A program made the position numbers and the translations under genes. Shown here piece by piece: positions 1-42,168 of a stretch of 42,248 nucleotides of DNA. Under the pieces are notes generated by a model, which was not told the origin of the DNA, did no database searches, and saw only the letters and a program-made list of their open reading frames with translations. Origin of the DNA: a virus; IMG/VR virus record IMGVR_UViG_3300045988_085462, positions 1-42,248 of that record. One strand, written 5' to 3'. Each line of letters starts with the position of its first letter. Position 1 is the first letter of the stretch.

Positions 1-39
1 ATCGCAAAGCTGGATGCGTATGTCCAAAGCAAAAAGTAG
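1..39 (+). CDS. int: 3' end of the integrase ORF (duplicate of 42130..42168 created by the terminal repeat)
   Basis: Translates to IAKLDAYVQSKK*, the same as the C-terminus of the 41026..42168 ORF. Confidence 0.85.
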   Translation: MAKLDAYVQSKK

Positions 40-60
40 GTCTGCAAAAAGTCTGCAAAA
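40..60 (+). repeat. Tandem GTCTGCAAAA(A) pair, putative integrase arm-type sites (int-proximal arm)
   Basis: gtctgcaaaaagtctgcaaaa lies directly after the int stop codon. The same 18-mer recurs at 236..253. Confidence 0.5.
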
Positions 61-91
61 GCAATAAAAACACGACTTGACGCGATATAAA

Positions 92-119
92 GGGGGTTCG
101 AGTCCCCTCCCTCGCACCA
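92..119 (+). other. tRNA 3'-end fragment (T-arm, 3' acceptor strand, discriminator A, CCA); probable attP core
   Basis: GGGGG-TTCGAGT-CCCCT T-arm, then CCCTCGC, A, CCA. No matching 5' acceptor strand (GCGAGGG) lies upstream, so this is a fragment and not a gene. Confidence 0.7.
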
Positions 120-123
120 AATG

Positions 124-170
124 AAAATCCGCATGAATGCTGGAAAATCCAGTGTTCATGCGGATTTTTT
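124..170. terminator. Bidirectional intrinsic terminator
   Basis: A 14-bp perfect stem, AAAATCCGCATGAA (124..137) pairing with TTCATGCGGATTTT (155..168). T-run on the plus strand and A-run (T-run on minus) on the other side. Confidence 0.75.
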
Positions 171-235
171 GTATTTACAGTAGCTCGGATACTATCGAAT
201 ACTAACCGATATCTGCACTTAATTGCTATCCGAAA

Positions 236-253
236 GTCTGCAAAAAGTCTGCA
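236..253 (+). repeat. GTCTGCAAAAAGTCTGCA, second copy of the putative arm-type site pair
   Basis: Exact 18-nt match to 40..57, on the other side of the tRNA-fragment core. Confidence 0.5.
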
Positions 254-257
254 GACC

Positions 258-899
258 TTATCCGCGCTCTACAATGCGTTCCCAGTACTCGACCAGTTTG
301 CCATCCACAGCGTCTTTGTCCTGCAAAAACGCTGCGGCCATGTCAGCGTAAAAGTTGGTGTTGTCCACGCTGTACATTTTTGCGACTTTGCCGTAGTCGC
401 TGTACATCATGTTCATGGTGGCCCAGAAGTCATTTTTGTCGCAGGTTATGCCGCGCTGTTTCGCAACGTCCTGCGTCTGTTCCAACGTCCAGTGACAGCC
501 TTTCGTACCGTCAGCGTTCACCATGTTGTCGCACCATTCCTCAGCTTCATCGTGGGTGAGGTGCTGGCGCGGCATCTTGATGGAGCGGCTGTCTGCACCG
601 CCACGCTCGTACTGTCCAGACCGCTTGTCCCATTCTCCGTCCTGCGAGAAGCCGATTTGTGGCATCTTGCGTCCATACTCTACGTCAGGGTAGCGGGGGA
701 TAGGGTAAGGGTCGATGTAGCGGTTCTCCTCCTGCGGATAGTAAGGGTAGCGGTCGTTGCCACCTTCCAGCTTACGCAGACGGCGTTCCATCTCACGCTC
801 CCTGCGGTCACGCTCTTCCTCAAGTCGGTCACGTTCCGGCTCACGATTTTTGTCGTGGTCGCGGAACATCATCATGCGGCGAAAATTAGTCTTGCCCAT
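258..899 (-). CDS. Hypothetical cargo protein: Arg/Glu-rich charged N-terminus, Pro/Tyr-rich linker, globular C-terminal domain
   Basis: 213-aa ORF with ATG preceded by AAGGAGG. Contains tracts ERDRLEEERDRREREMERRLRKLE and YPYYPQEENRYIDPYPIPRYP. The C-terminal HLTHDEAEEW..MNMMYSDY segment looks like a conserved uncharacterised Clostridia family, from memory only. Confidence 0.7.
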   Translation of the reverse strand: MGKTNFRRMMMFRDHDKNREPERDRLEEERDRREREMERRLRKLEGGNDRYPYYPQEENRYIDPYPIPRYPDVEYGRKMPQIGFSQDGEWDKRSGQYERGGADSRSIKMPRQHLTHDEAEEWCDNMVNADGTKGCHWTLEQTQDVAKQRGITCDKNDFWATMNMMYSDYGKVAKMYSVDNTNFYADMAAAFLQDKDAVDGKLVEYWERIVERG

Positions 900-912
900 A
901 ATCTATACCTCC

Positions 913-1284
913 TTAGGAAATGGACGCGGGTGCGCCAGCGTGGGAACGGCAGAAGCAGCCCAAATATTTGAACGTGCCTGTGCCAGTGGCAGACGTTGCA
1001 ACGCGGGTAGCGTAACGGGTGCGAGTGTGGATGCTCTCAGCGGTTGCCTGAGCGCAGTTGCAGTCGGTCAGAGGGTATGCGGTCGTTCCTGCGCCGATGG
1101 TAATGACCACAGGGGCGTTGATGGTGGTCGTGTCCGGGATGCTCTGGGCAACCACGATGCAATAACGCTCTCCGTTCTGGTATGCGCCAGCAGGGATATT
1201 GATGGTCAGCGTGTCATTGGCGAACGTCACCGACTGGCTCAAGACCAGATGGGGGCAGAGTTTGCAGCTTGTTTTGCAAGCCAT
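913..1284 (-). CDS. Hypothetical Cys-rich beta-type protein (123 aa)
   Basis: ATG preceded by AGGAGG. Nine Cys in total: three near the N-terminus (MACKTSCKLC), one internal (YCIV), CNC, CFC, and a beta-strand-like Thr/Ile/Val-rich body. Confidence 0.7.
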   Translation of the reverse strand: MACKTSCKLCPHLVLSQSVTFANDTLTINIPAGAYQNGERYCIVVAQSIPDTTTINAPVVITIGAGTTAYPLTDCNCAQATAESIHTRTRYATRVATSATGTGTFKYLGCFCRSHAGAPASIS

Positions 1285-1298
1285 AATGTTTTCCTCCT

Positions 1299-1334
1299 AA
1301 AAAATCAGGGGCAGAGGTGTCTTACCCCTGCCCC
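1299..1334 (-). terminator. Intrinsic terminator or attenuator inside the cargo operon
   Basis: On the minus strand, GGGGCAGGGG-taagaca-CCTCTGCCCC followed by TGATTTTTT. It lies between the 290-aa and 123-aa genes. Confidence 0.6.
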
Positions 1335-1369
1335 GATGGTTCACCCGGTGTTATCGGGGAGTGTGTTGG

Positions 1370-2242
1370 TTAGCAGCAGCCGCAGCAGTTCACGCCCAAG
1401 TTGGGGTTTGCCACCTGATAAGCGGGAATCGGACGAGGATTGACCCGGTTCAGGATGGTATCAGTCTGCTGGGACATCACGGTGGTCAGAAGCGCATTCT
1501 GCCGATCCTGAGAAGCGGCGAACTTCAGGCTCTGGTTCTCAGCGGTCAGAGTGGCGATCTTATCCTGCGTGAAGTAGTCCATCATAGCGCGGTAGTTCGC
1601 GTTGCAGTTGTCGATAACTGCGCGGGCATTGTCTGCGATAGCCTGACGGGTAGCGCAGTCCTCTGTTGCGATGGTGTACTTCAGGTCGCCGATCAGCTGC
1701 TTGTTCTCGCAGCAGCAAGATGCCAGCTGCGTGGCAAGTGCGGTCTGGCCAGCCTGCCGTGCGTTGCCCTCCTGCATGATGGCAAGGTTGATGGCGTTGT
1801 CGCCATTGGACACGCTGCGTTCCAGACCGTTCACGAGCTGTGCGTTCTGGTAGCCAAGCTGACAGATGGCGCTGTTCACGCCAGCAAAGCCGTTCGCAAT
1901 GTTGGCGTTGATGCCATTGATCTGCGCCAGCTGGTCATAGCCCAGAGAGCAGATACCGCTCTGGATACCCGCCAGAGAGCGGGAGGTGTCCTGCTGGTAG
2001 AAGCCCTCAGACAGAGCTGCGCGGGTGTCCGCACCGCCCTGACCGCTTGCTCCGGTGCCGACCAGATAGGGGATGTAGGCGTTCATGCCGTTGTCGCCGC
2101 CGTTGCGGCCATAGCCGTTTGCGCCCCAGCCGAAGATGATGGCGAGGATGATAACAGCCCAAAGACCCTCGTTGCCGAAGAATCCGCCGTTGTTATTGCC
2201 GCCGTCCTGCCCAGCCAGATAGCCAGTTGCAAAATCGTCCAT
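1370..2242 (-). CDS. Hypothetical membrane-anchored protein: Gly/Asn-rich N-terminus, one TM helix, long Asn/Gln/Ala-rich helical region, C-terminal CCGCC
   Basis: 290-aa ORF with ATG preceded by AAAGGAG. Contains GGNNNGGFFGNEGLWAVIILAIIFGWGANGYG, an internal CCC, and ends in NCCGCC. Confidence 0.75.
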   Translation of the reverse strand: MDDFATGYLAGQDGGNNNGGFFGNEGLWAVIILAIIFGWGANGYGRNGGDNGMNAYIPYLVGTGASGQGGADTRAALSEGFYQQDTSRSLAGIQSGICSLGYDQLAQINGINANIANGFAGVNSAICQLGYQNAQLVNGLERSVSNGDNAINLAIMQEGNARQAGQTALATQLASCCCENKQLIGDLKYTIATEDCATRQAIADNARAVIDNCNANYRAMMDYFTQDKIATLTAENQSLKFAASQDRQNALLTTVMSQQTDTILNRVNPRPIPAYQVANPNLGVNCCGCC

Positions 2243-2364
2243 AACAAAACTCCTTTCAGTTTTGCGTTATGCTATCCCACCGCCGTATGCGATGGGCGAA
2301 GCCAAACAAATGCGGTTTTTGTCAAGTCCGCAAAACTGAGAAGCGTTTCGCTTAAAGGGATGCG

Positions 2365-2616
2365 TTATCGAGGCAGCGTCAGATTCAGGACGCTTGCCAA
2401 CTGGTTCAGGTCGATTCCACGCTCTTTGGCGAGGTTCCGCGCCATCGTCCGAAGCTGTGCTTCGTTTTTGCCCTGAATCAGGTTCAGACCCTGCATGATA
2501 GGTGCGCTTTGCCCGCCCAACTGCTGGATAAGACCCATCGGGTTCTGCCCGGCGCGAGCCAGATTTGCAAGCTGCATGATAGGGCTGTGAGTAATCATAT
2601 CAAATGGAGAGGGCAT
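2365..2616 (-). CDS. Hypothetical small protein (83 aa)
   Basis: ATG preceded by AAGGAG, which overlaps the upstream stop codon. Tightly coupled to the 2620..3138 gene. Confidence 0.65.
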   Translation of the reverse strand: MPSPFDMITHSPIMQLANLARAGQNPMGLIQQLGGQSAPIMQGLNLIQGKNEAQLRTMARNLAKERGIDLNQLASVLNLTLPR

Positions 2617-2619
2617 CGC

Positions 2620-3138
2620 TTATTCTCCTTTCTTCGCTGCGGTAGCGGGCTTAGAAAAGCTCTTCTGCCATTTTTCCAGTTCATCCAGTCGGTGGACAAG
2701 GGCATTGTACTGCTCAATAGGCACATACTGCTGTGTCGGTGCAGCGGTCTGCTGCGCCTGTTGTGCTTGCATCTGTCGCCATGCTTCCGGGCTGTAAAAC
2801 TCCTGTACATAGGATTCACAGGTGTCCGGGTTGAGCCGCTTGCAGTAGATCACGCCACTGCGCAAGTCCGGGCAATAGGTCGGTCTGCCGTACAGGTCTG
2901 ACGGTATCGCCAGAAATTCTTCCCTGCTGGAAACAGGTCTGCCGAGTAACCAACCTCCGTCCTGTGCCGACTGCTGAACAGGCTGCTGCCCATTCATCGG
3001 CTGCGGACGCTGCGGCTGTGCCTGTTGCATCTGTGTGTTCGGCAGGGGAGTGGCAAGCCCGACTGCGCCCATGCCGCCGTAAGGATTGACAGGCTGCTGC
3101 GGAACGTAGGGTGTTCCGGGTGTCGGATAATAGCTCAT
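2620..3138 (-). CDS. Hypothetical protein with Pro/Gln-rich N-terminal half (172 aa)
   Basis: ATG preceded by AAGGAGGG. The first ~65 residues are P/Q/G-rich, and there is a second Q-rich tract (QMQAQQAQQTAAPTQQ). Confidence 0.7.
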   Translation of the reverse strand: MSYYPTPGTPYVPQQPVNPYGGMGAVGLATPLPNTQMQQAQPQRPQPMNGQQPVQQSAQDGGWLLGRPVSSREEFLAIPSDLYGRPTYCPDLRSGVIYCKRLNPDTCESYVQEFYSPEAWRQMQAQQAQQTAAPTQQYVPIEQYNALVHRLDELEKWQKSFSKPATAAKKGE

Positions 3139-3189
3139 AAAACATCCCTCCTTGTGCTCTCAGTGTACCGCATCGGCAAAAAACAAAGG

Positions 3190-3210
3190 ACAACGAAGGT
3201 ACAACGAAGG
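3190..3210. repeat. Tandem 10/11-bp repeat (ACAACGAAGG x2) upstream of the cargo operon
   Basis: ggacaacgaaggtacaacgaaggac lies between the minus-strand terminator at 3213..3252 and the 3138 start codon. Confidence 0.6.
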
Positions 3211-3212
3211 AC

Positions 3213-3252
3213 AAAAAAGAAAAGCGCCCACACGGAAAAACCGCATGAGCGC
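3213..3252 (-). terminator. Intrinsic terminator insulating the cargo operon from upstream (late or lysis) transcription
   Basis: On the minus strand, GCGCTCATGCGG-ttttt-CCGTGTGGGCGC (12-bp stem with G-U pairs) followed by TTTTCTTTTTT. Confidence 0.65.
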
Positions 3253-3480
3253 TTAACTATTAAAGGACTTCGCATTGGAAGCAAAACTAAAATATCACGT
3301 TTCTGCTTGCAAGGCAAGGGTTTCGACAAAACTAGTGCAAATAAAACAAAATCCCACACTTTGCCTACAAAGTACCCCGCGTGGCACGCAGGGCTTCGGC
3401 AAAGCAGGGGATTTCAGATATCCGCCCTCTTGTGCTTCTTCGAGAGGCCGGGTGGATTTGTTGATGTTATTTTACCACAA

Positions 3481-3624
3481 TCAATCTGTTACGACAAGAA
3501 CCAGTGCGGGGCCGTTGACGCTGACCGCTGCGTCCTGATAGGTCTCGACAACAGTCGTTTCCACGCCCTCGCGTTTGCGAAGCTCTGTAATAAGATTGGC
3601 GGTCGGAACATTTTCGAGGTTCAC
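3481..3624 (-). CDS. BC1881-like small phage protein (47 aa, GTG start); below the ORF-track cutoff
   Basis: AAAGGAG RBS then GTG. VNLENVPTANLITELRKREGVETTVVETYQDAAVSVNGPALVLVVTD matches the remembered pattern of the small Firmicute-prophage family (..EL..EL.kReGVe......y......v.GPa.vlvV). Confidence 0.55.
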   Translation of the reverse strand: MNLENVPTANLITELRKREGVETTVVETYQDAAVSVNGPALVLVVTD

Positions 3625-3926
3625 GGTGAGCTCCTTTCGTCTAGCTTTTCATCAATAACTTTCAGCCGGTAGCCTATCGCCGTCCGACTGTAATGTGTCT
3701 GTGCTGCAATGTCCGGCAGCGGAAGCCGCTCAACATACCGCAGTAAGGCTATCTTACGGTCTACCCTCCCAAGCGGTGCGCTTTTGATGGCGGCGATCAT
3801 CCTCTGTCTGTCAAGTCCTCGCAGCGCAGCGGGCAGCACTACGCGAGCCGCCGCCACGGGCAGCACCGAGCCAGAAGGGCTGCGGCAGCTGTCCAGCGTT
3901 GCGCACCATATTGCCAATGCTGGCAA
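3621..3926 (-). CDS. Sigma-70 region-4 / ArpU-like HTH segment; start uncertain, possibly the C-terminal part of a split gene
   Basis: The C-terminal RVDRKIALLRYVERLPLPDIAAQTHYSRTAIGYRLKVIDEKL looks like a region-4 type HTH. The N-terminal third of the ORF looks like out-of-frame sequence. The first internal ATG is at 3800. Confidence 0.45.
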   Translation of the reverse strand: MPALAIWCATLDSCRSPSGSVLPVAAARVVLPAALRGLDRQRMIAAIKSAPLGRVDRKIALLRYVERLPLPDIAAQTHYSRTAIGYRLKVIDEKLDERSSP

Positions 3927-4029
3927 ACTGGTGACGTTTTGTCACCAGTTTCGTGATGTCACGAAATTGCTCTTGTGTGGCGTACATTTTGTTGGCGTCA
4001 ACAAAATGCTCGTATGTAGTGCTTGCCAT
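3811..4029 (-). CDS. Hypothetical protein (72 aa); possibly the N-terminal part of the same ArpU-like gene
   Basis: AAGGAGG RBS then ATG at 4029 (MASTTYEHFVDANK..). The last ~20 codons (GAARGGGSRSAARCAART) look non-coding and overlap the 3621..3926 frame, which is offset by +1. Confidence 0.5.
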   Translation of the reverse strand: MASTTYEHFVDANKMYATQEQFRDITKLVTKRHQFASIGNMVRNAGQLPQPFWLGAARGGGSRSAARCAART

Positions 4030-4039
4030 GATATCCTCC

Positions 4040-4381
4040 TTACTGCTTTTGCAGGGCTGCTCTTGCCCGGTCAAAGAAAAACTGAATCACTTTGCTCATG
4101 GTCTCTTCGGTGATTGCCCAGCTGACCAGCCTGCCCCACCGGCTGTTGTTCAGGTAGTGGCGCAGCATCTTGACGCACCACGCCTTGCGCTCTGCGCCGC
4201 GCTTGGTGCCCTGAATCTCTTTCTCAGCTTGGTCGATGAGGTCAAGCACAAGCGTCCTGACCGCTGCGCCGTAGCCCAGACGGATAAGTCCCAGCACAAG
4301 CGACACAGCGCCCACAACGATGAGCACAAACGCCAGCCACGAGGGCAGCGGGGTGAGAATGGTGTTAAGGATTGCTTCCAT
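4040..4381 (-). CDS. Holin, LL-H-like (N-terminal TM helix plus soluble C-terminal domain)
   Basis: 113 aa with a TM segment WLAFVLIVVGAVSLVLGLI. Sits in the lysis cassette downstream of the endolysin. The family call is from memory of LL-H holin architecture. Confidence 0.6.
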   Translation of the reverse strand: MEAILNTILTPLPSWLAFVLIVVGAVSLVLGLIRLGYGAAVRTLVLDLIDQAEKEIQGTKRGAERKAWCVKMLRHYLNNSRWGRLVSWAITEETMSKVIQFFFDRARAALQKQ

Positions 4382-4754
4382 GATTGGTTACTCCTTTCAA
4401 CAGGTAATTGTTAATGTCGGTCTTGCTTTTTTGCATACCTTCGCGGTTATTGCCGGACAGTTGCGAATCCAAAAGGTTCTGCACGCCAACGAGAACAAGG
4501 CGCATTTCTTCATCGAGGCCGTCAAATCGCCGGAGGTCTCTTGCAAGGGCTTGTGTATGCTGGAGCTGCCCCTGTTCCAATGTGCCGACGCGCTTGTCCA
4601 GCTCATCTAGCCGCTTGTTCTGCGCGTTGTCCGGCTCCTGTGCCTTTTTGATGTACTTATGGATGATTTCCAGCACCTTGTCGATCGTGATGGCAGCGGC
4701 GCACAGGCTGCCCAAGATGCCCAGCACCCACAGCAAAGCTTCTTTTTCGGTCAT
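4365..4754 (-). CDS. Membrane-anchored coiled-coil protein of the lysis cassette (129 aa)
   Basis: Start at the internal ATG 4754, overlapping the endolysin stop as ATGA. TM segment LLWVLGILGSLCAAAITI followed by a heptad-like region. The longer track ORF (to 4913) overlaps the endolysin out of frame. Confidence 0.65.
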   Translation of the reverse strand: MTEKEALLWVLGILGSLCAAAITIDKVLEIIHKYIKKAQEPDNAQNKRLDELDKRVGTLEQGQLQHTQALARDLRRFDGLDEEMRLVLVGVQNLLDSQLSGNNREGMQKSKTDINNYLLKGVTNHGSNP

Positions 4755-5434
4755 TTGCCCTCCCGAAGACGGGTCAGACCCTTCTTTGCGATGATTTTTG
4801 CGTAGTCCTTGTAGGGCACCGACAAGTCCACGCCGGAAATCTTGCCCGGTATCGCGTCCACAACACCGGGAATCTTGCCCTTGCTGGTGTACTGCCACAA
4901 GCCGAAGTTCCATTCTGGTTCAGGCTTTTTGCTGCGGTAGGCTGCCAGCCACACGTCATACGGCTTGAGCGCCGCGCCGGTCATGTACAGGTTATCACGG
5001 GCGAAATACAGCCCGGTGTACAGCATGGCGTAAAAGCCCCAGCGCTCTACCGTGCCCAGCGCATGGGCGGCAATGTCGGTCAGGGTCTGCTTGTCGAGCG
5101 GTGCTTGCACATAGCTGTCCTCAATGTCCACCGCCACCGGCAGCTGCACCGTCTTGCCGGTCAGCACCTTGCGCAGCAGGGCAAGTTCTGCGTCTGCTTC
5201 TGCCGTGTTGACCGCCTTGCAGTAGTAGTACACGCCACAGGGGATGCCCAGTCTCTGGCACTCGCGGTAATTGCGCTCAAAGGTTGGGTCGATGTACGGC
5301 TTGCTGGGCGCGTCTTTCGCGCTGTTGCCCAGCGCCCGCAGCATCACGCCGGAGACAAGGCCGCTTGCCTTGACCTTGTCCCAGTCGATGTTACCCTGCC
5401 AGCGGGAAACGTCTAAAATAGTTTTTGCCATCAT
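4751..5434 (-). CDS. Endolysin, GH25 muramidase catalytic domain only
   Basis: N-terminal DVSRWQGNIDWDKVK motif and overall GH25 (Cpl-1-like) pattern. 227 aa, with no recognisable wall-binding repeats. Confidence 0.85.
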   Translation of the reverse strand: MMAKTILDVSRWQGNIDWDKVKASGLVSGVMLRALGNSAKDAPSKPYIDPTFERNYRECQRLGIPCGVYYYCKAVNTAEADAELALLRKVLTGKTVQLPVAVDIEDSYVQAPLDKQTLTDIAAHALGTVERWGFYAMLYTGLYFARDNLYMTGAALKPYDVWLAAYRSKKPEPEWNFGLWQYTSKGKIPGVVDAIPGKISGVDLSVPYKDYAKIIAKKGLTRLREGK

Positions 5435-5469: not shown

Positions 5470-7737
5470 TCAGTTAATAGTTCTCCAAACACCCCCGAAT
5501 CCTGATTCAACGCATATCCACCCAATTGGTTCAGATTTGCCACACGCATCATTGTATAGTATAGTTCCTCTGTCCCAAAAGTATTGTTTGTCTTTCGGAT
5601 ATGATGTTACTGGGGGATGTATTTCAATTCTTTTGTTTTTTAATGTAGAACTCGTAAAATTATTGCAGAAGTTATTTTTGCCAGCAAGAAGAACATTGGC
5701 ATTTTCGCTTCCAGAGCTTTCAACCGCATATACACCATCAGCTAAAGCTATTACAGTTTCGCCATCGATAGTATGCCACGATTCTCCTTTCAAATCGAAA
5801 GTACATCCGGCTACAGCGCCTGTGGCAATTTTTACCAAGGGGTACATTCTTTCTTTCCATGGCATATAAAAACTGATATCGAGTTCGCTAAAAATTAACG
5901 AATACGCATAAATTAACGGGCTTACTGATTCTTTGCTGTGGGCTGTTATAACGCATTTTGTAAAATTGAATCTTGAAGTAATAAATCTTGAATCCAAGTC
6001 TCCGTAACCTAGTCTGAATATGCTTGTAGTGCATCTAGTAGATTCAAATTTACAAAAATTGAAAAAAATGTCGTTTGAACCTTCTTTAGACACCCATACC
6101 TGATTGAGAAAACTTTCCCAAGTGCAATTGTAAAATTCCAGTTGATTACATTGCCTATATTTGATTCCGTTCACGTCTGTATCGATTGATAGCAAAAATG
6201 ATGGACAAATCAAATTAGCATTTGTATAGTCTTTGCCAGAGTTCCAAAAATGACAATTATACCAAGAAGAATCCTGAACACCAGACATATCGAAATGAAC
6301 GCCATTTGAAATGATACTTAATCCAGAAAACTTACATAAAGCCATACCGCGTAATTTGAATAATGGACTTGAAAAGTATGTTTCTGCTTTATCTGTCATA
6401 TTATTAACGGAACGTATCGTAAAATTAGATATTTCCACCCACATGCATTGTTCGGCGTTTTCGGTATCGACAGAATCTCCTGCGCTTTCAAACATACTAA
6501 TATTTGATAAACGATACAAAACCGCTTGTCCTCTTCCAAGTCCTTTTACGGTTACTTTTGGGCGTACCTTTACTGTTGTTTTACAAATATATTCACCCGC
6601 TGGAAACATTATCACACATCCGTTTGGGTTATCACTTATTATTTTATTGGCGATAATTCCGAAATCATGTGTTTCATCTGCGCCATAGTTTTTTATGTTA
6701 TATTCTGGTGTTAAAATTCTGATAATAGGTTTATAATATGGATCATATACAGCAGGTGTGTCTTTTAACCCTATCATTTTGTATGGTTTGTCGAAAAAAG
6801 CATTTGGTAAAACAACCTTAATTTTTGAAGTCAACGGGTTTTCAATTTTATATAGAAAATCTACACAAGGGAATTGTATTGAACGTAATATAAATTTATT
6901 ATCTTCATCAAATTCAGCAACATATACGACATTTGTTCTGGTAAGCGTATTGGGATTAGAATTATCAGAAAAGGCAAACCAAAATTCATCTCCTAATTTT
7001 GCCGCAATATAACCTGTAATTGAATTGTCATCGCTTTTTTTTACATTTCCATTATCATCGATAATGGCATTTGGTGTTACATCATCGTTATCTAGCAGAT
7101 TATTAGGATATTGGGTGTATAGCACATCATTCTTTATATCGCTTAAATCTTCCTTTAGCTGACCTTCCACCCCCTTTGCTCTTTCGCTCTCCGCATTGAC
7201 CGCTTCTCCCACCTTTGCCGCATCCGCAGCCTTGCCGGAGAGGGAGAGGGTGGGGTCGATGGTATTTTTGAGCTCTTCAACCGCCTGGATCGCCTGCGTC
7301 CACGACTCATTAGAGACCTGCGTGATATAAAAAAAGCTCTGGATCTCTGCGGTGCTGTCATAGCGGTCGTTTTTGCAGTCGCACTCGATAGGCCAGCTCT
7401 TGAGCATATAGCCTTTTCCGGTCGTCACGCAGAGCACGATGCTCACATGGCCCGGCACCTGCAGTGCCTGACGTGCGATCTCGCAGGTGACAACGTTGCC
7501 GGACACGGCACAAGCTGCCCGCTTGCCTGCGCCATCGTTGATGGTATCGTACCAGCCCTGATTCTGGGGGCCGAAGCCACGGTACATGATGCTGTAGCTC
7601 GCCCCTGCAGGCGCAGTATACGCCTTTCCGTTTTCGTACAACGTCGCCTGAAAAAAACGGCTCTGGCTGTCGTTCTCCACCGCGCTGATGTGCTGCGGCA
7701 GACCGGGATTATCAAAGTCAATCCTGATTTTCTGCAT
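5470..7737 (-). CDS. Tail fibre / tailspike: BppU-like N-terminal anchor, conserved fibre junction, pectate-lyase-like beta-helix C-terminal part
   Basis: 755 aa. N-terminus ENDSQSRFFQATLYENGKAYTAPAG is BppU_N-like. SLSGKAADAAKVGEAV is a fibre junction motif. NIKNYGADETHDFGIIANKI..VIMFPAGEYICKTTVKV resembles the start of pectate_lyase_3 tailspike domains. Confidence 0.75.
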   Translation of the reverse strand: MQKIRIDFDNPGLPQHISAVENDSQSRFFQATLYENGKAYTAPAGASYSIMYRGFGPQNQGWYDTINDGAGKRAACAVSGNVVTCEIARQALQVPGHVSIVLCVTTGKGYMLKSWPIECDCKNDRYDSTAEIQSFFYITQVSNESWTQAIQAVEELKNTIDPTLSLSGKAADAAKVGEAVNAESERAKGVEGQLKEDLSDIKNDVLYTQYPNNLLDNDDVTPNAIIDDNGNVKKSDDNSITGYIAAKLGDEFWFAFSDNSNPNTLTRTNVVYVAEFDEDNKFILRSIQFPCVDFLYKIENPLTSKIKVVLPNAFFDKPYKMIGLKDTPAVYDPYYKPIIRILTPEYNIKNYGADETHDFGIIANKIISDNPNGCVIMFPAGEYICKTTVKVRPKVTVKGLGRGQAVLYRLSNISMFESAGDSVDTENAEQCMWVEISNFTIRSVNNMTDKAETYFSSPLFKLRGMALCKFSGLSIISNGVHFDMSGVQDSSWYNCHFWNSGKDYTNANLICPSFLLSIDTDVNGIKYRQCNQLEFYNCTWESFLNQVWVSKEGSNDIFFNFCKFESTRCTTSIFRLGYGDLDSRFITSRFNFTKCVITAHSKESVSPLIYAYSLIFSELDISFYMPWKERMYPLVKIATGAVAGCTFDLKGESWHTIDGETVIALADGVYAVESSGSENANVLLAGKNNFCNNFTSSTLKNKRIEIHPPVTSYPKDKQYFWDRGTILYNDACGKSEPIGWICVESGFGGVWRTIN

Positions 7738-16208: not shown

Positions 16209-17699
16209 TCAGGACTTGGTGACGGTGACGGTGTAGGTCTTGGCGGTCTCACCGTCCGCTGCGGTCACGGTAATGGTCACAGTGTTGCTGCCATCGTTCC
16301 AAGTTGCAGGCTTTCCGTTCTCAATCTCCTTGCCGCCCACTTCCACTTTGACCTTAGCGCCAGCGTTAGCGGGGGTTGCGGTAATGGTGTTGGAGGCCGC
16401 AGAGGTGGTAGCCGTATAGGTCACATTGCTGGAGGTAAAGCCCGGGGTCAGATTCAGACTGCCCAGCTTCAGGGCGCTCAGAGTTGCATCATTGGATGCG
16501 GCAGGCGCGGGAACGGTAGTCACGCGGTAGGTCATGGGCTGCAGGCCGGTAATGTCCAGATTCAGGAAGGCATTGTTGTCCACCGGGAAGCCGTTGGCAT
16601 ACAGCTTGATCAGATAGACGCGCTCGTCCTCGAGGAAATGGTAATCATCGCTGTATTCGATGCGGCCGTTCTTGTTCATGCCGACCGGTGCAAAGTACAG
16701 GTGGCCGATGCCAAACACAGCCTGACCACGCGGCAGCGCAGCGGTCTTGATGACGGTCAGGGGAACAGGGAAAATATCGTTGCGGTAGGTGCCATCCGGG
16801 GCACGCACAGTGGTTGCAGGCATCACGCGCAGGTAGTAATCCTGCGGGTTGACCAGCAGGATCAGATCATCCGGGTCACGATCCTTGCCGTTGGCAGTCT
16901 TACCCAGCATGGAGATCAGATTGCCCATCGTGGCAGGCTCGAAATCGTTGACCTTGACCTTTGCCTTCTCGGGATAGGTCTTGCCGCCGATCACGGCAAC
17001 GTCATCGCTCACATCACGCACCATGCCAATGGGCTGATCGTTGCCGTCGCCCATGACGATGCCCTCTTCCAGACCGTTCGCCAGAGCTTCCGCCAGAATA
17101 GCGCGGATGTAGCGGTCCAGCCACTCAGGGCCCAGATCCAGCTGTGCCTTGCAGACAGGGATGAACGCAGACAGCTTGTACAAACCTGCATCCACTTCCT
17201 TAAAGCCGGAGGTCAGTTCCTCCACGATCTTGGCGCACAGCTTGCCCCACTTGGCCTTGTGGATGCCATCAGTGTTCAGCATCATGCGGATCGCGCCGCC
17301 GGTGGGGGTAAACTGGATCTTACTCAGCAGGGGGTGCTTGGATGCCAGATCGTCCATCACGCGGCTGATAACCGTCTGCGGGAACACAACGGTCACGTTC
17401 TCCAGCGCCTGCTTGGGGTTGTCAGCGCGCATGGCCTTCTCCACGGCCTGATAATACTCGCGCTCGTTGCTGGTCAGCTGGCGCACGCCGCGGGCATACA
17501 GGACGGAGTTGTCCAGCTCCTGCTTCATGCCGTCCAGCTGCTGCTGGTACTCCTCGCGGTTGATGTCGCCCACGGTCTGGAACATCTGCAGGAAGGTGTC
17601 AGTCACAGCATTCTCGTCGTTGCTCTTGTAAGCATCGTGCAGCTTCTGGCGCAGATCGTTCAGCTTCTGATTGTTCTTGTACAGTTCAGAAAGATTCAT
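16209..17699 (-). CDS. Major capsid protein (HK97 fold) with a C-terminal cadherin-like beta-sandwich domain
   Basis: AAAGGAG RBS then ATG at 17699. N-terminal delta-like coiled region and an HK97-type body. The last ~95 aa (ATLSALKLGSLNLTPGFTSSNVTYTATT..GSNTVTITVTAADGETAKTYTVTVTK) match the cadherin-like (PF12733-type) consensus. Confidence 0.85.
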   Translation of the reverse strand: MNLSELYKNNQKLNDLRQKLHDAYKSNDENAVTDTFLQMFQTVGDINREEYQQQLDGMKQELDNSVLYARGVRQLTSNEREYYQAVEKAMRADNPKQALENVTVVFPQTVISRVMDDLASKHPLLSKIQFTPTGGAIRMMLNTDGIHKAKWGKLCAKIVEELTSGFKEVDAGLYKLSAFIPVCKAQLDLGPEWLDRYIRAILAEALANGLEEGIVMGDGNDQPIGMVRDVSDDVAVIGGKTYPEKAKVKVNDFEPATMGNLISMLGKTANGKDRDPDDLILLVNPQDYYLRVMPATTVRAPDGTYRNDIFPVPLTVIKTAALPRGQAVFGIGHLYFAPVGMNKNGRIEYSDDYHFLEDERVYLIKLYANGFPVDNNAFLNLDITGLQPMTYRVTTVPAPAASNDATLSALKLGSLNLTPGFTSSNVTYTATTSAASNTITATPANAGAKVKVEVGGKEIENGKPATWNDGSNTVTITVTAADGETAKTYTVTVTKS

Positions 17700-17725
17700 G
17701 TTGTTTTCTCCTTTTTGGTATTTAA

Positions 17726-17758
17726 AAAGCAGCACTCCCACGAAGGAAGTGCTGCTTT
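17726..17758 (-). terminator. Hairpin between the protease and capsid genes (AAAGCAGCACT / AGTGCTGCTTT)
   Basis: An 11-bp stem with an 11-nt loop. On the minus strand it is followed by TTTTAAAT. Confidence 0.5.
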
Positions 17759-23816: not shown

Positions 23817-23892
23817 TGGCATTCCCGGCAGGGACTGAGCCTGCAGCCTCTGGTTTTGGAGACCAGCGCTCTACCAATTGAGCTACGGGAAC
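23817..23892 (-). tRNA. tRNA-Trp (anticodon CCA), CCA-encoded, atypical T-loop
   Basis: Hand-folded: acceptor GTTCCCG/CGGGAAT (G1-U72), D-arm GCTC/GAGC, anticodon arm CTGGT-CTCCAAA-ACCAG, T-arm GCAGG-CTCAGTC-CCTGC, discriminator G, CCA. Confidence 0.75.
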
Positions 23893-23898
23893 ATATCA

Positions 23899-23971
23899 TG
23901 CCGCGTGCAGGAATCGAACCTGCAACGACCCGGTTATGAGCCGGATGCTCTGCCGGTTGAGCTAACGCAGC
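23899..23971 (-). tRNA. tRNA with anticodon CAT (elongator Met or Ile2), no encoded CCA
   Basis: Hand-folded: acceptor GCTGCGT/ACGCGGC, D-arm GCTC/GAGC, anticodon arm TCCGG-CTCATAA-CCGGG, T-arm GCAGG-TTCGATT-CCTGC, discriminator A. G1-C72 argues against an initiator. Confidence 0.8.
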
Positions 23972-40436: not shown

Positions 40437-41054
40437 ATGGATGATTGGGTATTGCGCGTTGCGGAAACACTGGAAAAAGCAAGGGCAGAGGCCGGAATCA
40501 GCCAAGCCACACTTTCAAAGCGAATGGGCGTAAGCCGACAAAGCGTAATTAAGTGGGAGCAGGGCGTCAACGCGATATCCTTCCCCATGATGATGAAATG
40601 GTTTGTGGGCTGCGGCGTTTCGCTGGAGCGGTATCTGGATTCATGCATCCACCCGGGTCTGCTGGAACGGCTGGAAGACAGTCCCACCGACAAAGAAAAG
40701 CGCCGAATGCTGCACGAGGCCATCGAAGAATGCAGTGCATACGAGGTAGACACGCTCTTGTACATCCGCTACGGCGCGCACGGGTCGGACCATCTGAGCG
40801 TGCTTACCGAAATGGTGGCCAACCTGCACACGCCACTGCGGGATAGGGTGGCCGTGGTCAATACGATCCTGAGCCACTACGAGATCGCCATGGCGACAAA
40901 AACGGATGTGGACCCAGAAGGGCTGCAACCGAATATTGAAATGCTGTGTCAGGCGCGCGATTGCGGGATGGCAGCAGCAAAAGACATGGAAGATGTCTAC
41001 TCCATTAACAAGGAGGCAATAGAGGATGCCAAGAAAAAGAACGAAACGCGCTGA
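40437..41054 (+). CDS. XRE-family HTH regulator with a ~140-aa C-terminal domain (205 aa), co-oriented with and overlapping int
   Basis: AGGGGGA RBS then ATG at 40437. ISQATLSKRMGVSRQSVIKWEQGVNAISF is an HTH_3 pattern. The track ORF's 85-aa N-terminal extension lacks coding character. Confidence 0.75.
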   Translation: MDDWVLRVAETLEKARAEAGISQATLSKRMGVSRQSVIKWEQGVNAISFPMMMKWFVGCGVSLERYLDSCIHPGLLERLEDSPTDKEKRRMLHEAIEECSAYEVDTLLYIRYGAHGSDHLSVLTEMVANLHTPLRDRVAVVNTILSHYEIAMATKTDVDPEGLQPNIEMLCQARDCGMAAAKDMEDVYSINKEAIEDAKKKNETR

Positions 41055-42168
41055 CGGTCGGTACGAGATCAAGCGGAAAATGCCGGACGGAAAATATAAG
41101 CACTTCTTAGGCGACACGGTTGCCGAAGCAACTGCAAAGTATGAAGAAGCCTACCGGCAGGCAACGCTGGAAGAAAGCAAAAATAACGGCGGTGCTACCT
41201 TCCGGGAAATGGCAATAGCGTACAAAGATTACATTACAGGCTCGACAAAGCCGGTAAAACGTGGTACAATTAACGCCTACGTCAAGAATATCCCTCCGCT
41301 TCTGGAATGCTTTGGCGACACGCCGATGGCCGACATCGACACGCAGGCAGTCTGCGGATACATGGAGCGCATGAAGATGGACGGCAAAGCCTTGCATACC
41401 ATCACCAACGCTAAAAGCGTGTTATCCTGTATCTTTACCTTCTGGTGTGCCAACTATCACGGAACCAGTAACCCGGTTCTTCTGGCAAAACCGCCCGCCG
41501 GGATGAAAAAGGGGAAGCGATTAGAGCCGACAAAAGCGCAGCGGGATATTATTGACGCGCATCCAGAGGGGTGCGGTTTCTGGGCGCAGCTATTCGAGTA
41601 CACCGGGCTCCGTCTCGGCGAGGCAAACGGGTTGCAATGGAAAGACGTGGACTTTGAGCAGAATGTAATCCATGTGAGTTCCGCAATGCCGTGGGACCGT
41701 AACCGCGCCTATGAGGAAACGCCAAAGTCAGAGAAGGGATACAGAGATGTGCCCATCCTGACGACCTTTCGCCCGATGCTGTTGGAGCAAAAAGCCGGTC
41801 ACGCAGACACGGACTATGTAATGTCTGGTGAAGCAAAGCCGCTGTCGCAGTCGCAGTATGAGTGGCGCTGGGCAATCTACTGTCGGGATCTCGGCCTGAG
41901 TGAGAAACAGGAGAAGCGCGCCAGGATAAAGGATAAGCCGGGCGAGTACAGGGTGTACTACAAGTGGAAAGCGCTTGTAACGGCGCACCAGTTCCGGCAT
42001 TTTTACGCGACCAATCTTTTTTACGCCGGTATCCCGGACATGGTGGCCCAGAAACTTATGGGTCATGCAGACATTTCAACGACCCGAAAGATATACCAAC
42101 AATTGCGTGATGAAGAGGACAAGCAGTACATCGCAAAGCTGGATGCGTATGTCCAAAGCAAAAAGTAG
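41026..42168 (+). CDS. int: Tyrosine integrase (phage integrase family)
   Basis: AAGGAGG RBS. Contains TGLRLGEANGLQWKDVD (Arg box I), HQFRHFYATNLFYAGIP and LMGHADISTTRKIY (box II, H-x-x-R ... Y). Adjacent to attP. Confidence 0.9.
   Translation: MPRKRTKRADGRYEIKRKMPDGKYKHFLGDTVAEATAKYEEAYRQATLEESKNNGGATFREMAIAYKDYITGSTKPVKRGTINAYVKNIPPLLECFGDTPMADIDTQAVCGYMERMKMDGKALHTITNAKSVLSCIFTFWCANYHGTSNPVLLAKPPAGMKKGKRLEPTKAQRDIIDAHPEGCGFWAQLFEYTGLRLGEANGLQWKDVDFEQNVIHVSSAMPWDRNRAYEETPKSEKGYRDVPILTTFRPMLLEQKAGHADTDYVMSGEAKPLSQSQYEWRWAIYCRDLGLSEKQEKRARIKDKPGEYRVYYKWKALVTAHQFRHFYATNLFYAGIPDMVAQKLMGHADISTTRKIYQQLRDEEDKQYIAKLDAYVQSKK

Follow-up and report, generated by a model that had tools for sequence, protein, structure and literature searches.

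We analyzed the DNA of a virus from IMG/VR, record IMGVR_UViG_3300045988_085462, positions 1 to 42,248; this whole stretch of 42,248 nucleotides (nt) is referred to below as the window. Near its start lie five consecutive open reading frames (ORFs) on the minus strand, A to E, which an initial annotation of the sequence had put forward as its best candidate for an undescribed functional module. These genes, and a sixth (S) upstream of them, are arranged as follows.

3621..3926, minus strand: S, a small sigma-70 region-4-like helix-turn-helix protein
3138..2620, minus strand: A, ORF of 172 amino acids (aa)
2616..2365, minus strand: B, ORF of 83 aa
2242..1370, minus strand: C, ORF of 290 aa
1284..913, minus strand: D, ORF of 123 aa
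899..258, minus strand: E, ORF of 213 aa

The five genes and the strong ribosome-binding sites attributed to them were all recovered, with an AGGAG-type site preceding each of A–E, and the compositions described for their products hold: A is Pro/Gln-rich, C is Gly/Asn-rich with Cys, D is Cys-rich and E is charged. The GC content of the cassette (0.52–0.58) is in line with that of the phage backbone (0.50–0.57), also as first described. In comparisons with close relatives, the ratio of nonsynonymous to synonymous substitution rates (dN/dS) was 0.04–0.10 for all five genes (0.05 for both A and B), indicative of purifying selection. Because of these values, and because every gene has many homologues, we regard A–E as more than chance ORFs. 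The phage records closest to the window are human faecal contigs and Faecalibacterium phages.

Synteny was assessed in 93 non-redundant related loci, comprising D-seeded genome contigs, annotated phages and metagenome contigs, with iterated hidden Markov models (HMMs) for the five families. The order A-B-C-D-E was seen in 42 of the 93, and nearly all remaining patterns are sub-strings of it, seen where a contig stops or where the HMM no longer recognizes a diverged A, B or E. Co-occurrence of the five genes, which the initial annotation had proposed to check, thus extends to a fixed order. Spacing is kept as well: A–B and D–E are tightly packed, and gaps lie before and after C. In one locus (L003), all five genes are present at 33–67% identity.

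The conserved unit does not stop at A. Within the window, S matches known models weakly (Sigma70_r4_2, E-value 0.0047, 17 bits against a cut-off of 25.7; the transcriptional regulator phrog_36, 4e-4; and models of extracytoplasmic-function sigma factors). By iterated HMM, a homologue of S lies upstream of A, on the same strand and within 1.5 kb, in 44 of the 66 loci with enough sequence, and the syntenic homologue in L182 carries PF04545 (Sigma70_r4; E-value 1e-5 or better on record). Since conservation is limited to the last ~60 aa, translation of S probably starts downstream of the first codon of the longest ORF. Because this sigma-region-4-like gene recurs, the unit exceeds five genes, with S a candidate regulator of the cassette. 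Judged from these sequence comparisons, the region is one copy of an autonomous accessory cassette widespread in gut phages, with the layout S, A–B, C, D–E. It appears to be served by a promoter region of its own and to contain two conserved structured RNA elements, or possibly three. Its fixed order across very divergent phages, the purifying selection on all five genes and the conserved cis-RNA elements described below support the earlier suggestion of a discrete functional module.

The families are large. At least 7455 clusters at 90% identity were found for C, 1518 clusters for D, and 1761 clusters at 50% identity for DUF7841, the C-terminal domain of E; a search of IMG/VR with C gave at least 599 matching stretches. 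Named hosts are mainly Oscillospirales, Lachnospirales and Christensenellales, and carriers include Clostridia prophages and Rep3/ParA phage-plasmids. Among cultured phages, the cassette is present, at least in part, in CPD1, CPQ4 and XP41-N3 of Clostridium perfringens and, with weaker matches, in Butyrivibrio phage Ceridwen. Homologues of C also occur in a cultured phage of Bacteroides uniformis (C3_41T2LP) and in viruses assigned to Methanomassiliicoccales. We dropped the idea that C3_41T2LP carries the whole cassette, as comparisons of the D, A and E profiles with the neighbours of its C gene (hhalign) were unsupportive. In Crassvirales (cr125_1, cr50_1), a full-length C homologue (E-value 1.2e-27) is accompanied by a DUF7841 protein (3e-34) whose domain order is reversed relative to E. 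Late and lysis genes of cr125_1 (L174), including the C homologue, have in-frame stops under translation table 11, consistent with stop-codon recoding in this Crassvirales lineage. Host labels thus span Bacillota, Bacteroidota and Methanomassiliicoccales, and all sources that name an environment are animal gut or faeces, although the databases are biased that way.

Beyond its genes, the cassette contains several conserved non-coding features.

3222..3254, minus strand: terminator-like hairpin 5' of A, 14 pairs (8 GC), followed by a T-run
2243..2345, minus strand: leader of C, a conserved structured element in the B–C spacer
1282..1372, minus strand: two-hairpin C–D element, a conserved spacer RNA that ends at the Shine–Dalgarno (SD) sequence of D
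1360..1341, minus strand: hairpin 1 of the C–D element, 5'-UC-NNNN-loop-NNNN-U(bulge)-GA, with an invariant UGA
1334..1308, minus strand: hairpin 2 of the C–D element, a GC-rich terminator-like stem of 11 pairs (8 GC)

Of the two RNA elements, the C–D element is the more firmly established. Its two hairpins are separated by a short spacer, and hairpin 2 is followed by UGAUUUU (UGAUUUUUU) and then by the SD of D. A covariance model (R1) gave 70 matches and placed the element directly 5' of D in 69 loci, including C. perfringens phage CPD1. An extra, weak match (27.8 bits) lies ~2.5 kb downstream of the cassette in L098 (8495–8603). Across the alignment, 89.9% of cells were paired versus 72.1% in shuffled controls, double-sided changes numbered 152 versus 43, and the covariation score was 0.545 versus 0.227, with 0 of 500 shuffles as high and slid controls reaching at most 0.18; these figures lean towards structure, because the alignment was fitted to the model. 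In the stem of hairpin 2, all eight of eight pairs show compensatory changes.

With its GC-rich stem and U-run, hairpin 2 has the makings of an intrinsic terminator. Yet the U-run is interrupted and abuts the SD of D, so this hairpin is as likely to be a partial or regulated terminator as a full stop. The initial annotation had described three terminators bracketing and dividing the genes, and a terminator scan did find all three hairpins (3254..3222, 1334..1308 and 124..168). The internal one, however, is half of a larger conserved RNA element and no simple insulator. We also considered whether the invariant UGA of hairpin 1 might mark selenocysteine insertion or readthrough, and rejected this: the window copy of the triplet lies in the reading frame of neither C nor D and is followed by an in-frame stop. 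In four loci (L103, L109, L120 and L127), an extra ORF of ~70 aa, helical by eye, comes right after hairpin 2 and its SD, making D the second gene after the element; in L119 and L146, an extra small ORF lies between C and the C–D element.

The leader of C is present in roughly half of the loci. Its closing helix pairs an anti-SD strand, CUUCUCAGUUUUG (CUCCUUUUCAGUU), with AAAACUGAAAGGAG (AACUGAAAAGGAG), which holds the SD of C. Enclosed are hairpin P2, with a conserved loop CYUGA(N1-3)AAAA, and hairpin P3, whose 6-nt loop varies between loci and is always palindromic. An alternative pairing, CGCUCCC with GGGGAGCG, is a candidate. The closing helix formed in 24 of 24 minimum-free-energy folds of single sequences and shows compensatory changes among 13 ungapped strand pairs, and the mean probability that the SD is paired distally was 0.82, versus 0.31 in dinucleotide shuffles (n = 27). 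The leader is less firmly established than the C–D element because a consensus fold (RNAalifold on a MAFFT alignment) failed, the 3' strand being out of register. The leader is thus predicted, from folding, to sequester the ribosome-binding site of C. The TTGACA-like loop of P2 was examined as a sigma-70 –35 box and rejected, since no –10 box lies 16–18 nt downstream.

In its pairing of anti-SD and SD, the C leader is like the SD-sequestering leaders of riboswitch expression platforms and RNA thermometers. Similarly, a terminator-like hairpin between presumed major- and minor-subunit genes recalls attenuators, the partial terminators that follow a major pilin gene. Unlike such known leaders and attenuators, neither element matches Rfam (cmscan of positions 1–4200 of the window, E-values up to 10, with noise only at 2248–2347 and nothing at 1282–1372), and we found no counterpart of hairpin 1 with its bulged U and invariant UGA.

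Upstream of A in the window, the hairpin 3254..3222 comes after S, a BC1881-family ORF and a small RNA (sRNA) of the DUF3800-VIII class. Many other loci have S, then a hairpin with a T-run, then a TGnTAtACT extended –10-like box before A, and some have an additional hairpin containing GGUACACGUC before A. A short motif, C-Y-U-G-A, is found repeatedly ahead of A, C and D in different loci: in the P2 loop (~2325–2316 in the window), in hairpin 1 (1343–1341), after hairpin 2 (1307–1305) and in the S–A spacers of other loci. Judging by this recurrence, it may be a shared binding site for a protein, or may act as a –35-like site for S.

C is the only one of the five proteins with a hydrophobic segment. 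From an alignment of the family (A1), it consists of a Gly/Asn-rich N-terminus, a short hydrophobic helix (residues ~27–41), a Gly-rich linker, a helical Asn/Gln/Ala-rich rod and a C-terminal module. The rod varies in length among homologues, contains conserved Cys and has a periodicity of ~11 residues, judged by eye. The C-terminal module has an invariant CCC, the motifs KFAASQxxQN and PxPxPAYxVxNP, and a Gly/Cys(/Tyr) tail (CCGCC). Overall, C is rich in Ala, Gly and Asn, with 11 Cys and a single hydrophobic stretch, LWAVIILAIIFGWGA, which makes it a candidate membrane protein. It belongs to phrog_16490 (7.5e-41; function unknown) and is ~45–50% identical across orders. An AlphaFold2 (AF2) model has long helices at 84–145 and 151–267, with a mean predicted local distance difference test score (pLDDT) of 51. 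Such low confidence is as expected if C is an oligomeric rod.

D is more conserved, at 60–70% identity across orders. Of its 8 Cys, those of an N-terminal CxxxCxxC (C3, C7 and C10) are conserved, and C42 and C77 are invariant (alignment A2). E follows D after a 13-nt spacer and, on this arrangement, is putatively coupled to it. It is rich in Arg, Asp and Glu and consists of an Arg/Glu tract, a Pro/Tyr linker and a C-terminal domain (residues 109–206) that matches PF25223 (DUF7841; 1.9e-25, 89.8 bits against a cut-off of 25.2), a family of unknown function. DUF7841 is helical and, at ~30 positions (alignment A8), invariant, with H, D, K, R, S, T and C residues among them; in E, the conserved stretches include the motifs NADGTxGxHW, MMYSDY and FYADMAxAFLxDxDA. 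Among the best 150 of the 1761 DUF7841 clusters, proteins are 87–302 aa long, with the domain at or near the C-terminus.

A (14% Gln, 12% Pro) has a P/Q/Y-rich N-terminus, a conserved core of ~55 aa (RPVxSxEEAxAxxxDFxGxxxxxPDxxHGxIYxKxxN; alignment A3), and a C-terminal amphipathic helix followed by a basic tail. It is ~30% identical across orders and matches phrog_21718 (1.5e-9; function unknown), as do 27 of 40 members of the A family; no Pfam family recurred among these 40 at relaxed E-values. B is a small helical protein, separated from A by a 4-nt spacer and, by the look of this junction, translationally coupled to it. Its C-terminus has a helix-extension-helix-like motif, AKERGIDLNQLA, with a weak match to E3_binding (E-value 0.0028, residues 59–73).

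Scans of A–E against Pfam, NCBIfam, PHROGs and PADLOC returned only DUF7841 and PHROGs of unknown function. Pfam, NCBIfam and PADLOC gave no enzyme, toxin or defence domain, PADLOC gave nothing at E-values up to 1, and neither single sequences nor profiles matched the PDB in sequence searches. No signal peptide or lipobox was seen in the translations. The initial annotation held that no product resembles a nameable family. This stands as regards function; by family, E can be named as DUF7841, C as phrog_16490 and A as phrog_21718. We found no published description of the cassette, its proteins (as DUF7841 or PHROG families) or its RNA elements, so that, with uninformative searches of Pfam, NCBIfam, PADLOC, PDB and Rfam, the module does appear undescribed. 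The literature likewise gave nothing relevant on the crAss annotations or on links between ENA and prophages. On this absence of matches, the cassette is not assignable to any described kind of system, although its mechanism is not thereby demonstrated as new.

The same searches bear on a possible role in defence or anti-defence, for example if DUF7841 or D were to bind or sequester a universal signalling molecule or a host factor. Even between phages of different phyla, D and DUF7841 keep a very high degree of conservation, including a large number of invariant polar positions (H, D, K, R, S, T, C), and the cassette occupies a position typical for accessory genes. Against this stand the lack of PADLOC matches and of enzymatic or known sponge domains. 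An anti-defence gene is, moreover, typically an early gene that stands alone, whereas here a candidate membrane and coiled-coil protein is encoded within a late cassette of co-linear genes. We consider this explanation highly improbable.

Structure prediction gave more information for D than for C. Of the Foldseek searches with AF2 models that the initial annotation had recommended, the one with C was meaningless at the confidence of its model. The model of D, in contrast, was usable: a beta-sandwich (pLDDT 72.7; predicted template modelling score 0.69) with a low-confidence N-terminal Cys arm. It had no fold match in the PDB at an E-value below 1. In BFVD, it matched homologues and, weakly, the tips of fibre and collagen proteins and a crAss-like DUF7841 protein. 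The fibre-like matches (E-values 3e-3 to 5e-2) fall in C-terminal domains, and the proteins concerned bear annotations as T7-type tail fibre, collagen-repeat, trimeric-autotransporter-stalk or tail-fibre proteins.

These matches raise the prospect of a virion fibre or decoration module, with C as a trimeric stalk, D as a tip or adhesin made as a separate chain, and E (perhaps with A and B) as assembly chaperones, as for T4 gp37, gp38 and gp57A. Several further observations point the same way. In three different in-frame fusions (P0068, encoded at L178 1699–3066, P0073 and P0054), a fibre-type N-terminal domain and a coiled coil or collagen region are joined to the C-terminal half of C; in L178, a Rep3/ParA phage-plasmid, the fusion stands in place of S, A, B and the first half of C, ahead of D and E. 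Depositors have labelled Crassvirales homologues of C 'viral fiber' or 'spike', and the lack of signal peptides fits assembly in the cytoplasm. In addition, some copies of the cassette sit inside structural operons: between portal/minor-capsid and scaffold/major-capsid genes in Dulem virus 35 and Bajarodcaudo virus 2, and directly after two very large tail proteins in L179–181.

The fusions are single-member clusters that could be decay products, and so are a lead and no proof of a fibre role. Every full-length C starts with the conserved hydrophobic, Gly-rich segment where a virion-attachment domain would be expected, and only the rare fusions have a fibre N-terminus. Carriers are labelled, in BFVD or in record taxonomy, as Myoviridae, Podoviridae, Siphoviridae and Crassvirales, which is hard to reconcile with docking on a particular virion, and the fold matches are weak, with none in the PDB. 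Known fibre tip and chaperone cassettes (T4 gp37, gp38 and gp57A; Tfa of Mu and P2) resemble the one described here in grouping a helical stalk gene with genes for a tip-like, small beta protein and one other small protein, in being exchanged as a block between phages and in the existence of fusions to fibre N-termini. They differ in that C begins with a hydrophobic, Gly-rich region in place of a virion-attachment domain, in the lack of sequence homology, and in the regulator and RNA leaders that this cassette has of its own. On balance, we regard a fibre module as unlikely.

The Cys arm of D suggests another possibility, a self-assembling, Cys-cross-linked material (matrix, sheath or appendage) that is made in the cytoplasm, released by lysis and hardened by oxidation, and that protects or aggregates the progeny of phages whose hosts are strict anaerobes. 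The initial annotation had likened these proteins to spore-surface proteins. As an analogy only, this has some basis: in the model of D, a compact beta-sandwich bears an N-terminal arm that is disordered and rich in Cys, recalling the design of disulfide-linked Ena pili, in which a Cys-bearing N-terminal arm is attached to a beta-sandwich subunit (PMC12357932). The parallel with Ena1/2 (DUF3992), F-ENA (DUF4183) and CotC/CotY-type coat proteins extends to partners rich in Tyr, Cys or Gly, the lack of signal peptides and release by lysis of the producing cell (PMC12357932). Conserved cysteines in proteins without secretion signals, and regions of low complexity rich in Tyr, Pro, Gln, Gly, Arg and Asp in A, C and E, would suit such a material, as would the gut or faecal origin of all environment-naming sources across three groups of hosts. 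D is far more conserved than its neighbours, as for a subunit whose whole surface is interface.

As a statement of kinship, the likeness fails. ENA and coat families went unmatched in Pfam and in the PDB fold search, and we rejected membership of D among ENA or spore-appendage proteins (no Pfam match at E-values up to 1, no PDB fold match below 1); D matches neither DUF3992 nor DUF4183 nor a solved ENA structure. Unlike ENA and coat proteins, the cassette is phage-borne, and C and E occur also in phages of non-sporulating Bacteroidota. The order of the genes and the hairpin that follows C would make C, not D, the main product. Polymerization would be a proposal by analogy, and restriction to the gut may reflect database bias. 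We consider such a material quite unlikely.

The genomic position of the cassette bears on whether it serves the phage or the lysogen. In the window, its surroundings are as follows.

92..119, plus strand: tRNA 3'-end fragment (GGGGGTTCGAGTCCCCTCCCTCGCACCA), an attP-like site outside the cassette
124..168, both strands: bidirectional terminator, a long perfect hairpin of 20 pairs that closes the cassette
3350-3413, minus strand: Rfam sRNA DUF3800-VIII (RF03075), 75.5 bits against a gathering score of 40.2, E-value 9e-14
4040-4381: holin-like gene (phrog_15303)
41026-42168: integrase, at the opposite end of the window

Upstream of the cassette are genes for a GH25 endolysin and the holin-like protein, the sigma-region-4-like ORF (S) and the BC1881-family ORF. 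Downstream, direct repeats (GTCTGCAAAAAGTCTGCA) at 40–60 and 236–254 bracket the tRNA fragment, and fragment and repeats together look like an attP core with integrase arm sites; ARAGORN found no full tRNA at 92–119. With these features at one end of the window and the integrase at the other, the attP-like context is right, and the earlier placement of the genes between the lysis cassette and an attP-like site is borne out.

In many relatives, as in the window, the cassette lies 3' of lysis genes. In Rep3/ParA phage-plasmids and in L182, it abuts divergent replication genes, and in Crassvirales, C and the DUF7841 protein come right after the holin and a LysB/FtsL-like gene, before tail genes. 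Thus the cassette is portable, usually co-directional with late genes, and independent of an att site. It is autonomous, because it occurs after lysis genes, in the head block and after tail genes alike. The initial annotation had tied it, as cargo, to attP and a lysogenic-conversion position. This is too narrow, since the same cassette is found in the head block, after tail genes and beside replication genes; with such copies, and with C and E in Crassvirales, it is not confined to the prophage end of temperate phages.

These placements weaken the case for lysogenic-conversion ('moron') cargo, which would be expressed from the prophage for the lysogen and might block superinfection at the membrane or alter the envelope. 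The window copy itself fits well. It sits between the lysis cassette and the attP-like site, with terminators on both sides and a regulator and promoter-like box to itself; many exclusion proteins, for their part, are membrane proteins, as C may be. Known morons (lambda bor and lom, or genes in the stx position) are likewise insulated, with their own promoters and terminators, at the end of the late region by the att site. Unlike them, the cassette is a six-gene block with no single host-benefit gene, and it occupies several genome positions away from att, including the interior of head and tail blocks. In Crassvirales, C and E lie in the lysis–tail block, although no att site was searched for there. 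Moreover, D and E are 60–70% identical across hosts of different orders, which misfits a host-specific receptor interaction, and five proteins with RNA controls far exceed the needs of known exclusion genes. Moron cargo is thus an unlikely account of the cassette as a whole.

The explanation we favour, tentatively and as a possible rather than a probable one, is a late-made membrane complex in which C forms an anchor and coiled-coil rod, D and E are minor partners, and the whole acts in egress or exclusion. According to this proposal, the cassette would be transcribed with the late genes or at their end. C would be the major product, with its translation gated by its leader; it would enter the cytoplasmic membrane through its N-terminal hydrophobic helix and form a parallel coiled-coil rod. 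Its Cys/Pro/Gly-rich end would bind D and E through metal- or disulfide-linked cysteines. D and E are proposed to be less abundant because of the attenuator-like hairpin pair, which would lower read-through into D–E, and A and B would be cytoplasmic partners or regulators. Late in infection, the complex would either assist lysis and egress or keep out incoming phage, in both cases acting at the infected cell's membrane, and would be neither a toxin nor a host-benefit factor.

Spanins and lysis accessories (lambda Rz/Rz1, PBSX XhlA) offer a close comparison for this membrane complex. As in these proteins, the architecture of C is compatible with an N-terminal membrane-type anchor, a coiled-coil body with conserved Cys and a Pro-rich end, and C is often encoded beside holin and endolysin genes, both in Bacillota phages and in Crassvirales. 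Unlike spanins, the cassette has no lipoprotein partner or lipobox, the hosts here lack an outer membrane, and the cassette has four further proteins and is sometimes far from lysis genes. In Crassvirales, a separate LysB/FtsL-like gene lies beside C. PHROGs and Pfam gave no spanin or lysis-accessory match for A–E.

Several observations weigh against a late membrane complex. The hydrophobic stretch of C is short (13–15 residues between aromatic and Gly residues), and AF2 confidence for C is low (pLDDT 51). A fibre-like role, perhaps linked to the virion, is favoured both by the fusions of fibre and collagen parts to C that precede D and E and by the weak resemblance of the D model to fibre tips. 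In two phages, the cassette lies among head genes, and adjacency to lysis genes may only reflect a position at the end of the late operon. The hairpin after C, for its part, could stabilize the mRNA instead of attenuating transcription.

We also considered a broader proposal, which we think very unlikely to hold in full: a gut-phage system independent of the host and common, at least in part, to phages of Bacillota, Bacteroidota and Methanomassiliicoccales, in which riboswitch-like RNA control would govern a membrane-nucleated, Cys-linked assembly of coiled coils and beta-sandwiches, and in which release by lysis and oxidative cross-linking would protect or cluster, in transit, the progeny of phages of strict anaerobes. 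If such a protective cross-linked assembly exists, it would be for phages what coats and appendages are for spores, and would come with two new classes of structured RNA.

Other features of the window were noted alongside the cassette. Just outside the cassette on its upstream side, the DUF3800-VIII RNA occupies the interval that separates the BC1881-family ORF from the terminator 3254..3222; a DUF3800 gene was not seen in its vicinity. Between the endolysin gene, whose 3' end it overlaps, and the holin-like gene is an ORF at 4365–4913 (minus strand). Read from an internal Met, it has a hydrophobic stretch followed by weak coiled-coil matches (Tropomyosin and DUF7365; E-values 0.03–0.2), and it is a possible lysis accessory of the XhlA type. 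The major capsid protein (Phage_capsid; 16209–17741, minus strand) has a C-terminal Cadherin-like beta-sandwich domain (PF12733, E-value 1e-12), which could be an adhesion domain displayed on the capsid. GC content falls to 0.33 at 6001–7000, against ~0.53 for the backbone, inside a 755-aa tail-fibre-like ORF (5470–7737, minus strand) with a marginal pectate-lyase-like match (26.0 bits; cut-off 27); its composition suggests a recently acquired receptor-binding or depolymerase segment. Genes for tRNA-Trp(CCA) and tRNA-Met(CAT) lie side by side at 23817–23971 (minus strand).

Once seen as parts of one conserved, regulated unit, thousands of 'hypothetical proteins' that had stood alone become one system open to testing. 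Its carriers include many phages of major human gut anaerobes, Faecalibacterium and other Oscillospirales among them. Cultured representatives exist in C. perfringens phages CPD1, CPQ4 and XP41-N3 and in Butyrivibrio phage Ceridwen, and C is also available in Bacteroides phage C3_41T2LP. Both RNA elements may represent new classes of cis-regulatory RNA in phages. If the function of the cassette is in egress, exclusion or particle survival, it would bear on how gut phages persist and spread.

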